A DNA stretch of 64,000 nucleotides from an uncultured Candidatus Saccharibacteria bacterium (lineage in GTDB: Bacteria; Patescibacteriota; Minisyncoccia; UBA6257; 2-01-FULL-56-20). The first letter of the stretch is position 1, and every line of letters begins with the position of its first letter. Below the pieces are notes generated by a model, which saw only the letters and a list, made by a program, of their open reading frames with translations, made no database searches and had not been told where the DNA came from. Positions 45,370-48,371 of the stretch are shown in pieces. The stretch spans positions 31,242 to 95,241 of the forward strand of contig CAZAFA010000001.1 of NCBI GenBank assembly GCA_964484655.1. The letters run 5' to 3'. A program made the translations under genes and the position numbers.

Positions 45370-45397
45370 TTGACAAGGCGTGCCCGGTCCGTATACT
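45370..45397 (+). promoter_or_regulatory. Consensus sigma70 promoter for the 16S rRNA gene
   Basis: TTGACA at 45370-45375, a 16-nt spacer, and TATACT at 45392-45397, about 320 nt upstream of the mature 16S 5' end. Confidence 0.55.
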
Positions 45398-45714
45398 CCA
45401 ACCCGCACTCTGCTTGAGCCTCACCGGCCCCTTGCGGGCCGCTTCGCTTGAACGGGGCGCACCTTGAAAGCGCGATCACAAGGACAGTAATGACGGACGC
45501 ACCGATCGCGTCCGAACAAACCAGAAAAGTTTAGTAGTTGCTCCAATAGCGTCTGGCTCCCTGTAATGGGGCGCACGGCGTTAAACAAGAACAACTACTC
45601 AACAAGAGTGAACTCTGTTCATTCAATTTGAGTGACCCAAAGAAAAGTGAGCTCTACGTGCCCGAAACCCGACCGCTACGGCGGAGGCGAGTACTGCGCG
45701 ATATCTCATTCTTC

Positions 45715-47311
45715 TATTATGAGGATTTGATCCTGGTCCAGGATGAACGCTGGCGGCGTGGATAAGGCATGCAAGTCGAACGGACCGATTTCCAAACTTT
45801 TTACGAGCCGAGCATGAAGCAGCAATGCCGATTGCGAAGCGAGTGATGTGCGAGGGTTTCGGTTAGTGGCGAACGAGTTAGTAACACCCTGGTACGTACC
45901 CCAGAGTCGGGCATAGTCCGCCGAAAGGCGGGGTAATACCCGATGGTCTCGCGAGAGTAAAGATTTATCGCTCTGGGATCGGCCTAGGCCCGATCAGCTT
46001 GTTGGTGAGGTAACGGCTCACCAAGGCGACGACCGGTAGGGGAGGTGAGAGCCTGACCCCCAACGACGGGACTGAGACACGGCCCGTACTCCTACGGGAG
46101 GCAGCAGTCGAGAATATTCCACAATGGGCGAAAGCCTGATGGAGCGACGCCGCGTGCAGGATGACGGCCTTCGGGTTGTAAACTGCGGTAGCTAGGGAAG
46201 AACTTACGTGACGGTACCTAGCGGAAAGAGGCGGGTAACTACGTGCCAGCACCAGCGGTAATACGTAGGCCTCGAGCGTTATCCGGATTTATTGGGCGTA
46301 AAGAGCATGTAGGAGGCTTCGCAAGTCTTTGGTTAAAGACCACCGCCTAACGGTGGGAGTGCCGAGGAAACTGCGGAGCTGGAGGAGGTTAGAGGTGCAT
46401 AGAACGCATGGTGTAGGGGTGAAATCCGTTGATATCATGCGGAATACCAAAGGCGAAGGCAGTGCACTGGGACCTTCCTGACTCTGAGATGCGAAAGCGT
46501 GGGGAGCAAAAAGGATTAGATACCCTTGTAGTCCACGCCCTAAACGATGCCTGCTAGCTGTTTCGAGTATCGACCCTCGGAGTGGCGTAGCTAACGCGTT
46601 AAGCAGGCCGCCTGGGAAGTACGAGCGCAAGCTTAAAACTCAAAGGAATAGACGGGGACTCGCACAAGCGGTGGATCATGTGGTTTAATTCGACTCTAAC
46701 CGAAAAACCTCACCCAGGTTTGAAATTCTAGTAGCAAGCCTTCCGAAAGGTTGGCCCTCCGCAAGGACTACTAGGACAGGTGCTGCACGGTTGTCGTCAG
46801 CTCGTGCCTTGAGGTGTTCCCTTAAGTGGGTTAACGAGCGCAACCCCTGTCGTGTGTTACAAGTGTCACACGAGACTGCCCCGCCCATAGCTCAGGACCG
46901 GCGTATAAAAAATACGCACGGGTCGTGCGCTGCGGGCGGGGAGGAAGGAGGGGATGATGTCAAATCAGCGTGGCCCTTCGACGCCTGGGGCTACACACAT
47001 GATACAATGGCATGGACAAAGGGCCGCCAACCCGCGAGGGGGAGCAAATCCCAAAACCATGCCCCAGTTCGGATAGCAGGCTGCAACTCGCCTGCTTGAA
47101 GCCGGAATCGCTAGTAATCGCGGATCAGCATGCCGCGGTGAATACGTTCTCGAGTCTTGTACTCACTGCCCGTCACGTCAAGGAAGCCGGGAGCGGGTGA
47201 AGTTCGCGTAGCGGATCAGCCTGAGTTCGGTAACATGGACGAAGTCGTAACAAGGCACGCGTAGCGGAAGCTGTGCGTGAATCAATTCAACTCACTCTCT
47301 TACACCTCCTG
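45715..47311 (+). rRNA. rrs: 16S ribosomal RNA (stand-alone; no 23S downstream)
   Basis: 5' gaggatttgatcctggtccagg. Conserved blocks acggcccgtactcctacgggaggcagcag, gtgccagcaccagcggtaatac (a deviant 515 site), gcaacgagcgcaaccc, tgaatacgttc and gaagtcgtaacaagg. Anti-SD cacctcct at ~47302. Confidence 0.9.
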
Positions 47312-47511
47312 AGCCCTGTAACGGGGACAGGCTAGAGAGTAGGTCGGTCACGGTAGAGCCTCCGGGCACCGTCCGCGGGGGACCAATAGGCCCTTCGGAA
47401 TGGCTATCGTGGATCGCTACAGTCGTAGCACCTATTGGGGCAACTACTAAGCTTTTCTGTCATTACTGCCGCCGGTACCGCATACTATACTTGTGGTACT
47501 ATCTCTACCCC

Positions 47512-47925
47512 ATGGTCGAAGCTCCTAATCTCGCCCTCATCGTCGAGGACCAGAAATTCCTCTCTGCGATCCTCAAGGCCCGCCTCGAGCGGGAGGGCGT
47601 GCAGGTCGCTCAGGCCTTCGACGGTGAGGAAGCCATCCAGTTCCTCACCCAGACGAAGCCGGGCGTCGTGATCCTCGACCTTGTGATGCCGAAGACCTCG
47701 GGATTCGAGGTCCTGGAGGCAATCGCCCTCAACCCGATGCTGAAGTCGCTCCCGGTCCTGGTTCTCAGCAACCTGGCCCAGGACGAGGACATCGCGAAGG
47801 TGAAGCGCCTGGGCGCGAAGGAATACTTCGTGAAGGTGCAGAACCCGGTAGAGACGCTCGTGACGCGCATCAAGGCGTACCTCCCGCAGGCCACGGTACC
47901 CATACCCACCCCACCGAACCCATGA
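47512..47925 (+). CDS. Single-domain response regulator (CheY-like)
   Basis: ALIVEDQ, the VVILDLVMP phospho-acceptor Asp, and the conserved Lys. The start was chosen at MVEAPN; the track ORF starts at 47491. Confidence 0.7.
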   Translation: MVEAPNLALIVEDQKFLSAILKARLEREGVQVAQAFDGEEAIQFLTQTKPGVVILDLVMPKTSGFEVLEAIALNPMLKSLPVLVLSNLAQDEDIAKVKRLGAKEYFVKVQNPVETLVTRIKAYLPQATVPIPTPPNP

Positions 47926-48233
47926 TCGCCGACGACATCCGCTCCCAGATCCTCCCTGGCGCCAAGGTGCGCGTCTTCGAGGGCAAGGCGAAGAGCCCGT
48001 TCACGGGCATGGTCATCGCAGCCAAGCACGGCGCCGAGGCCGGCGCGACCTTCACGGTCCGCTCCATGGTCGCCGGCGTCGGCGTCGAGAAGGTCCTGCC
48101 GTTCAACAGCCCGAACATCACCAAGGTGGAGATCGCGAGCAGCCCGAAGAACGTGCACAAGAGCAAGCTCTACTACGTCCGCGACATGTCCGGCAGCACG
48201 ATCCGCAAGCGCCTCGGCGTCTCGCTCTCCTAG
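47922..48233 (+). CDS. rplS: 50S ribosomal protein L19
   Basis: TFTVRSMVAGVGVEKVLPFNSPNITKVEI...KSKLYYVRD matches the L19 core. It overlaps the upstream stop (ATGA). Confidence 0.85.
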   Translation: MIADDIRSQILPGAKVRVFEGKAKSPFTGMVIAAKHGAEAGATFTVRSMVAGVGVEKVLPFNSPNITKVEIASSPKNVHKSKLYYVRDMSGSTIRKRLGVSLS

Positions 48234-48289
48234 GATACCCGCCGTATTGCACCGCGTCAGAAGGGCCCGTACACTGTGCGGGCCCTTCT

Positions 48290-48371
48290 GCGCAGGTGGT
48301 GAAACTGGTAGACACGCCATCTTGAGGGGGTGGTCCCGAAAGGGGTGGAGGTTCAAGTCCTCTCCTGCGCA
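48290..48371 (+). tRNA. tRNA-Leu (anticodon GAG), type II with long variable arm
   Basis: gcgcagg-tg-gtgaaactggtagacac-gccat-cttGAGgg-ggtgg-tcccgaaagggg-tggag-gttcaagt-cctct-cctgcgc-a. No encoded CCA. Confidence 0.8.

Follow-up and report, generated by a model that had tools for sequence, protein, structure and literature searches.

A 64-kb stretch of contig CAZAFA010000001.1 (assembly GCA_964484655.1), analysed as a whole and called the window below, carries a complete 16S rRNA gene that has neither a 23S nor a 5S gene beside it. In all probability this is a functional 16S gene that forms a transcription unit of its own, apart from the 23S gene. It is followed on the same strand by a gene for a stand-alone receiver-domain response regulator (RR), by rplS (L19) and by a tRNA-Leu gene, and it is preceded by a divergent rpmE (L31). 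Demonstrated parts of this picture are the gene identities, the integrity of both 16S junctions, the absence of 23S, and the conservation of the promoter, of a helix formed by leader and trailer, and of the gene order. The locus is a well-documented example of how an unlinked 16S gene is built, with promoter, leader, processing helix and downstream unit.

The Rfam model RF00177 matches the plus strand at 45715-47292 with 1365.3 bits (gathering score 50) over model positions 1-1533, that is over its full length. This agrees with the coordinates that a preliminary description, made from the letters alone, had given for a stand-alone 16S gene. Helix 45 is intact with a GGAA loop, as judged by inspection of the sequence, and the gene contains two extra segments, one of about 70 nt in the helix-6 region (~45789-45858) and a 63-nt hairpin at 46879-46941. 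The universal 515 primer region reads GTGCCAGCACCAGCGGTAA, with which standard primers would mismatch.

The extra 16S segments are hallmarks of the Candidate Phyla Radiation (CPR), as are a short RNase P RNA, a short L19 and a class I release factor of 239 aa, all found in the window, which has a G+C content of 67%. Among the one-genome-per-species contigs of GTDB the closest rplS relatives are metagenome-assembled genomes (MAGs) labelled Paceibacterota, Parcubacteria or Patescibacteria; ranked by similarity (without a tree) on both rplS and 16S, they are MAGs of the Paceibacterota, Parcubacteria or Minisyncoccia. On this evidence the organism is classed as a high-GC Paceibacterota (CPR/Patescibacteria) bacterium. 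Three related genomes, L003 (JALHNY010000001), L004 and L005 (OY970382.1), have 16S genes with 95%, 83% and 82% identity, respectively, to that of the window; L005 is a closed chromosome of 888 kb.

Rfam detected no large-subunit or 5S rRNA anywhere in the window, of which 16.7 kb lie on the downstream side of the 16S gene and 45.7 kb on the upstream side. The 23S and 5S genes presumably lie beyond these limits on one side or the other, where they would be transcribed from a promoter of their own. In place of the canonical layout, with tRNA-Ile and tRNA-Ala in the spacer and 23S-5S downstream, the 16S gene is followed by RR, rplS and tRNA-Leu(gag). No 23S gene was found either in the flanks (up to 10 kb) of the 16S genes of L003, L004 and L005. 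We further scanned metagenome contigs with the helix-45 pattern of this clade and obtained at least 120 loci, the frequencies of which describe the clade defined by that pattern. Eleven of the twelve long metagenome loci have no 23S within 8-13 kb according to Rfam, and a search with three or four universal 23S motifs, which agreed with Rfam on the 12 loci checked, revealed no downstream 23S among the loci listed, with the same single exception. This exception, L166, is a distant relative with another 16S tail, in which a 23S gene follows the 16S gene on the same strand at a distance of about 10 kb, the interval containing tRNAs. The L166 16S gene also contains a group I intron (721-951), and its 23S gene spans 11788-14585.

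Brewer et al. (bioRxiv 10.1101/705046) consider rRNA genes unlinked when more than 1500 bp separate 16S and 23S, report this state as the rule in Patescibacteria, and name small-genome CPR as having exclusively unlinked rRNA clusters. The locus studied here shares several features with their description: the 1500 bp that follow the 16S gene contain no 23S, the state is clade-wide, and the clade belongs to the small-genome CPR. The earlier proposal of an unlinked 16S gene in a reduced-genome lineage is thereby supported by the CPR relatives, by the published rule and by the lack of 23S in the window and in its relatives. Since unlinked 16S genes and the loss of the anti-Shine-Dalgarno (anti-SD) motif have both been published for this group, the locus as such adds little. 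In contrast, the flanks of the 16S gene were not described in that work, whereas here they constitute a conserved block of rpmE (minus strand), 16S, receiver, rplS and tRNA-Leu with a conserved promoter and processing helix. A practical consequence of the unlinked state is that long-amplicon methods spanning 16S, internal transcribed spacer and 23S will miss this clade.

rRNA genes are classic points at which assemblers break or switch, and many of the RR homologs are found on contigs of about 1 kb. One could therefore think of a contig that is chimeric at the 16S boundary, or of a break that hides a 23S gene, yet such an artefact is scarcely credible here. Two Logan contigs from other sequencing runs reproduce the junctions identically: L001 is identical from ~47140 through the spacer, RR and rplS, and thus contains the junction between the 16S 3' end and RR, and L002 joins rpmE to the first 54 nt of 16S, again identical over the overlap. 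The first ~150 nt of L001 do derive from a different, related 16S gene, a switch of the assembler that lies inside a conserved part of the gene and not at its ends. Three independent MAGs, including the closed chromosome, share this gene order, as do dozens of contigs obtained in different metagenome projects. Moreover, the leader is complementary to the trailer on the far side of the 16S gene, which a chimera would not yield. The contig is therefore not chimeric near 47300.

Promoter, leader-trailer helix and probable end of the transcription unit

The 16S gene is preceded by TTGACA-16-TATACT, which matches the sigma-70 consensus at 11 of 12 positions. By itself the match is weak evidence: a scan of 4.5 kb gave three promoter-like sites against 1.3 +/- 1.3 in shuffled sequence, and chance is not ruled out by that scan alone. 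A stronger argument comes from the relatives, as in 33 of 36 related loci a TTGACA-16(-18)-TAtAaT box with ten or more of the 12 positions matching precedes the 16S gene by 90-370 nt, 12 of these boxes being perfect, and L003 retains both hexamers with a diverged spacer between them. The promoter named in the preliminary description is thus borne out. Transcription of the pre-16S RNA would start near 45404 and give a leader of about 310 nt, close to the ~320 nt estimated earlier. The promoter-like site of rpmE is arranged back to back with that of the 16S gene, and the two share the -35 region (TTGTCA and TTGACA on opposite strands; 45348-45397). The same layout is found in L003, where rpmE is preceded by TTGTCA-17-TAGTAT, 9 nt and the ATG.

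The leader and the trailer contain inverted repeats that would pair into a helix of about 40 bp around the 16S gene (45485-45549 with 47432-47468). Its inner arms are 28 nt long and 93% complementary, its outer arms measure 13 nt, and a local hairpin separates the two on the 5' side. With a GAAA linker substituted for the 16S gene between leader and trailer, the predicted folding energy is -72.6 kcal/mol, compared with -27.5 +/- 3.5 for shuffles (z = -12.9). A contiguous helix of 19-32 bp between leader and trailer is present in all 38 loci for which both flanks are available. In an alignment of the 19-bp helix core from 26 distinct loci 98.4% of the cells are paired, a percentage inflated by the selection of the segments for complementarity. 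Less affected by this selection are the double-sided changes: both partners are altered in 14 of the 19 pairs, a result not approached by any of 500 shuffles or slid registers. This contiguous-helix search and covariation count replaced RNAduplex on the whole flanks (340 nt against 230 nt), which gave energies barely better than shuffles and was uninformative.

The genes for RNase III and NusB lie 4 kb downstream of 16S, and according to a published report (PMC12641178) CPR bacteria retain RNase III. It is likely that the helix is a site for RNase III, which would cut it and free the pre-16S RNA in the manner of classical rrn operons.

In operons of the E. coli rrnB type an RNase III processing stem surrounds the 16S gene. 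The locus shares with such an operon a strong sigma-70 promoter, a long leader, the enclosure of 16S by pairing of leader and trailer, the presence of RNase III and NusB in the genome, and a tRNA gene distal to the rRNA. It differs in that spacer tRNA-Ile and tRNA-Ala genes are missing along with 23S and 5S, that protein genes follow the trailer, and that the strands of the stem lie ~165-230 nt before and 140-176 nt after the 16S gene. As far as can be judged from the sequence, the processing helix would work like that of E. coli. A boxA-like GCTCTTT was considered as a general element of the trailer and discarded, being found in 11 of 36 trailers and 1 of 36 leaders. Just past the 16S 3' end, after a variable hairpin, the whole clade has a conserved (A/G)GTCG(A/G) motif (47338-47350 in the window), which may form an inner processing helix with a CGAC immediately before the 16S 5' end.

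Downstream of the helix, the terminator scan found no terminator-like site between 16S and RR in the window. Such a site is also lacking in 67 of 77 distinct 16S-RR spacers, whereas 32 of 51 control regions beyond rplS have one, these control regions being 400 nt longer than the spacers. The median spacer length is 202 nt; the shortest spacer measures 51 nt, and there the helix strand directly adjoins the RR promoter. The lack of a terminator after the helix suggests that some transcription reads on into RR, rplS and tRNA-Leu, which take the place that a 23S-5S pair would hold in a linked operon; we think it rather probable that read-through from 16S into RR is appreciable. Transcription probably ends at a hairpin after tRNA-Leu, which is not called by a strict terminator scan as its stem is not followed by a T tail.

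The layout of L166, and the lack of a terminator directly after the 16S trailer, could also fit a very long single rrn operon, with 23S and 5S beyond 16.7 kb on the same strand and co-transcribed through the intervening genes. We regard this as highly improbable, given that a minus-strand mscS-like gene (2858-3694 in L001, ~49846-50682 in the window) intervenes within 2.6 kb of the 16S end, that a strong hairpin follows tRNA-Leu, and that terminator-like sites are common beyond rplS in the relatives. The helix of leader and trailer encloses 16S alone, and the published distance of 1500 bp makes the locus unlinked in any case.

Several points weigh against a separate, processed 16S unit as outlined here. 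Besides the choice of helix segments by complementarity and the greater length of the control regions, the start sites, RNase III cuts, read-through and leaderless translation are all deduced from the geometry of the sequence. The same-strand 23S gene about 10 kb away in L166 keeps very long co-transcription formally conceivable. Finally, the pattern used for the metagenome scan is specific for the clade, so that the frequencies derived from it are valid for that clade alone.

The receiver gene and the conserved 16S neighbourhood

The spacer between the end of 16S and the ATG of RR at 47512 measures 219 nt (some 200 nt in the preliminary description). A longer version of the open reading frame (ORF), starting at 47491, had also been put forward; it is unused by an independent gene call and not conserved in the relatives. 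Most of the RR orthologs listed have an extended -10 box, TGnTAtAAT, that ends 6-9 nt before the ATG, a geometry from which a leaderless mRNA is predicted. RR, rplS and tRNA-Leu may hence be transcribed from a promoter of their own as well, and L19 would be made by translational coupling through the ATGA overlap between RR and rplS. The succession of a receiver gene, an overlapping rplS and tRNA-Leu(GAG), as first described, was recovered with Pfam and ARAGORN. The rplS product is a short CPR-type L19 with 84% identity to its L003 ortholog; it scores 58.9 bits against TIGR01024 (cutoff 90.7) and covers model positions 29-109 only.

Single-domain response regulators are known from CheY, Spo0F, DivK and CpdR. 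Like these, the RR consists of a receiver only, with the acidic pocket, the phospho-acceptor Asp, the Ser/Thr and the Lys conserved: in 76 distinct orthologs the conservation of E12, D13, D56 (the phospho-acceptor), S86 and K108 is 97% or higher. As in other such systems, a histidine kinase and further receivers are encoded nearby. Unlike them, the RR has no partner genes for chemotaxis, sporulation or the cell cycle in its vicinity, and it is distinguished by its fixed place behind 16S and by an SNLxQxxD stretch (residues 86-93) that is family-specific and essentially invariant in the same orthologs. No NCBIfam model reaches its cutoff for RR; the highest-scoring matches, to the receiver halves of PhoB and RpaB, fall far short of it, and no che genes occur in the annotated window. 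The label "CheY-like" thus holds for the receiver fold; nothing points to chemotaxis, neither an equivalog-level match nor the gene context.

The order 16S, RR, rplS, tRNA-Leu(gag) is the same in L003, L004 and L005, and tRNA-Leu(gag) follows rplS in many metagenome loci as well. Among the loci listed, an RR ortholog directly follows 16S in 61 of the 83 that have at least 1300 nt downstream, and rplS is present too in 39 of these 61. The association depends on the type of 16S tail: among the loci listed, RR is found within 1.5 kb in 60 of 62 distinct loci with an anti-SD-less tail of the AAUUAAAC type, in 11 of 28 with other tails, and in none of the 3 with a canonical CCUCC tail. The reverse test led to the same result, since four RR homologs selected solely for the length of their contigs, corresponding to seven places, all have 16S directly upstream and L19 downstream (7/7). 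No 23S motifs were seen in the seven places, the four long-contig loci covering +/-10 kb, and a divergent rpmE precedes 16S in four of the five places for which that flank is available. Across the Patescibacteria, RR precedes rplS in 3 of 80 rplS loci, all three of which have 16S. The adjacency of RR and rplS is thus restricted to loci with 16S, indicating that RR is tied to 16S and not to rplS.

On the other side of the gene, a divergent rpmE is found in 21 of the 38 loci listed with enough upstream sequence, and also in the related loci L203-L206, L210 and L213. Further upstream the window encodes a sensor histidine kinase, a candidate partner of the receivers at this locus. A homologous kinase is located 2-7.6 kb upstream of 16S in seven loci, and directly before rpmE in L203, L204 and L206. 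In these three the order is release factor (minus strand), receiver, receiver, histidine kinase, L31 (minus strand), 16S, RR and L19; in the window the genes follow one another likewise, apart from a few insertions, and L203 and L205 also have a tRNA synthetase and NDK upstream. Two-component genes just upstream of rpmE and 16S lie at 38741-39166 and 42309-43718 in the window, at 5806-7290 in L203 and at 5870-7372 in L206, and several relatives contain one or two additional stand-alone receivers plus a histidine kinase in this position. The second receiver of the window (38741-39166) is only 26% identical to RR, so that the RRs behind 16S form an orthologous group of their own. The flanks of the 16S gene are therefore not random: rpmE, 16S, receiver, rplS and tRNA-Leu have been kept together across a large, mostly uncultured clade.

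It is possible, though we lean away from it, that RR, rplS and tRNA-Leu are independent units that merely lie beside 16S in a frozen order, with no read-through and no tie to rRNA synthesis. The extended -10 promoter and leaderless placement of the RR orthologs would fit such independence, as would a TACACT box 14 nt before tRNA-Leu. The receiver itself is a generic PF00072 domain with nothing tying it to ribosomes. In addition, nearly the whole neighbourhood (aspS/asnS-type synthetase, ndk, release factor, RR, histidine kinase, rpmE) is syntenic in L203, L205 and L206, insertions in the window aside, so that RR may simply belong to a stable block. However, the position behind 16S in nearly all anti-SD-less loci listed holds at RR identities down to ~40%. 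Spacers as short as 51 nt, the general lack of terminator-like sites in them and the restriction of the RR-rplS pair to loci with 16S likewise speak against mere juxtaposition.

A bolder proposal sees 16S as the core of a conserved regulatory module of the anti-SD-less Paceibacteria, in which a phosphorylatable RR is transcribed from or with 16S and translationally coupled to L19, with the histidine kinase, the receivers and L31 upstream. We consider this unlikely at present. If it were true, two-component signalling would be connected directly with ribosome synthesis or function in organisms without most of the classical growth-rate control. A functional tie between the receiver and rRNA transcription would likewise offer a testable handle on the control of ribosome production in ultra-small bacteria. 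A limited literature search yielded no description of a response regulator fixed behind 16S, which is weak evidence of novelty. Of the whole locus, the conserved combination of 16S, stand-alone receiver and L19 in anti-SD-less Paceibacteria is the part that deserves follow-up.

The 16S tail and the signals before start codons

The CCUCC motif is missing from its canonical place after helix 45, where the tail reads GAAUCAAUUCAACU and GAUCACCUCCUUA would be expected; the consensus tail of the clade is GGAUCAAUUAAACU. The anti-SD motif is reported to be missing in about half of the Parcubacteria, a group that overlaps the lineages without uL1 (Tsurumaki et al. 2022, RNA, PMC9297842). The window shares with that subgroup the absence of CCUCC(U) at the 16S 3' end. 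Leaderless mRNA is not mentioned in that paper, and the -10-box signal before ATG and the link between tail type and receiver are shown only here.

An exact CACCTCCT occurs at 47303-47310, 11 nt past the Rfam end of 16S, in the window as well as in L003 and L210. It might be taken to mean that the anti-SD was displaced and not lost, a 3'-extended mature 16S still pairing with Shine-Dalgarno (SD) sites, and a few genes do carry AATAAGGAG(G) 8-9 nt before their ATG. We hold this to be very improbable. The next relatives L211-L214 lack the octamer, as do L004 and L005, and reading the tails of the AT-rich clade members by eye revealed none. It sits in a variable hairpin that covaries among the relatives, start codons are not preceded by an SD peak, and the few SD-like sites lie in stretches that by eye seem lower in G+C. 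The octamer was hence discarded as a general, displaced anti-SD, and it is probably a lineage-specific chance occurrence with no such function.

Among the 62 ORFs of the window, 13 have a TAnnnT box that ends 6-9 nt before the first start codon, compared with about 1.5 expected from other distances, and about 19 have one at 6-10 nt when nearby starts are allowed. Examples are the starts at 5467, 10042, 12696, 18620, 23835, 26234, 42309, 43753 and 62193. The same pattern is found in L003-L006. In contrast, GGAG, GAGG and AGGA show no positional peak before the start codons of the 62 ORFs, and SD use in this genome was accordingly rejected. The -10 boxes without an SD peak fit the missing anti-SD motif, and suggest that the mRNAs of most first genes in operons are translated without a leader. 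One paper on CPR (PMC12641178) mentions leaderless mRNA only in passing, and a limited literature search found no description of leaderless promoters in Patescibacteria, weak evidence that the observation is new. Gene callers that rely on SD sites will misplace start codons in this clade.

In contrast to the rest of the genome, the SD-like AATAAGGAG(G) is located 8-9 nt before the ATG of the genes at 3694-4008 and 55389-56603; the gene at 48497-49789 has only GAAAAGGAAAAT. These three genes, lying in seemingly lower-G+C stretches, may be recent arrivals.

Coordinates and other genes of the window

The features of the 16S locus are collected in Table 1.

Table 1. Elements of the 16S rRNA locus and associated genes, with positions in the 64-kb window
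Feature	Position	Strand	Description and evidence
Sensor histidine kinase (HisKA + HATPase_c)	42309..43718	+	Pfam on Logan gene calls, NCBIfam; candidate partner of the receivers
rpmE (L31)	45087..45338	-	PF01197; divergent from 16S
rpmE promoter-like site TTGTCA-17-TAGGAT	45348..45376	-	-10 ends 9 nt before ATG (leaderless geometry)
16S promoter TTGACA-16-TATACT	45370..45397	+	-35 at 45370-45375, -10 at 45392-45397; 11/12 consensus positions
16S leader	45398..45714	+	~310 nt from predicted transcription start; promoter position and Rfam 5' end
Processing helix, 5' strands	45483..45549	+	outer arm 45485-45497, local hairpin, inner arm 45522-45549; inverted repeats
16S rRNA gene	45715..47292	+	1578 nt; Rfam; tail GAATCAATTCAACT at 47279-47292
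16S trailer/spacer	47293..47511	+	219 nt; hairpin ACTCTC...GAGAGT with CACCTCCT, then conserved GGTCG motif, then 3' strands of helix
Processing helix, 3' strands	47432..47468	+	inner arm 47432-47459, outer arm 47456-47468
Extended -10 box TGgTACTAT	47494..47502	+	ends 9 nt before RR ATG; predicted internal promoter, leaderless mRNA
Receiver-domain response regulator (RR)	47512..47925	+	137 aa; PF00072
rplS (L19)	47922..48233	+	103 aa; PF01245; ATG overlaps RR TGA as ATGA
tRNA-Leu(GAG)	48290..48372	+	ARAGORN; Rfam 46.7 bits
Hairpin GGAAAAGGCGGCC-cgaaa-GGCCGCCTTTTCC	48378..48408	+	13-bp, G+C-rich; candidate end of transcription unit
rnc (RNase III)	52036..52734	+	Pfam domains on Logan gene calls; adjoins nusB 51571-52032

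The preliminary description had regarded the ribosomal-protein genes of the window as dispersed. This is correct for rplU (3013-3324), which has no adjacent rpmA and is followed by an ORF without a Pfam match; for rpmF (L32, 51321-51524), which follows the RNase HII gene rnhB (50725-51324); and for rpmE, which has no other ribosomal-protein gene beside it. A search with an L27 sequence found no L27 gene in the window. The positions of L31 and L19, by contrast, are not random, as both belong to the conserved block around 16S.

The class A RNase P RNA (34550-34874, minus strand) is 325 nt long against a model of 367 positions, and scores 107.9 against an Rfam gathering score of 100. The class I release factor (37944-38663, minus strand) comprises 239 aa, with the PCRF domain matching from position 100 onward and an RF-1 domain. 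It retains the PKT and GGQ motifs and has no upstream room for domain 1; a form of ~241-243 aa is also encoded in L203, L205 and L206. Finally, the phosphoglycerate kinase ORF at 10087-12255 encodes 722 aa, of which residues 24-356 only match the PGK domain and the remainder has no Pfam match, and may represent either a fusion or an over-extended ORF.

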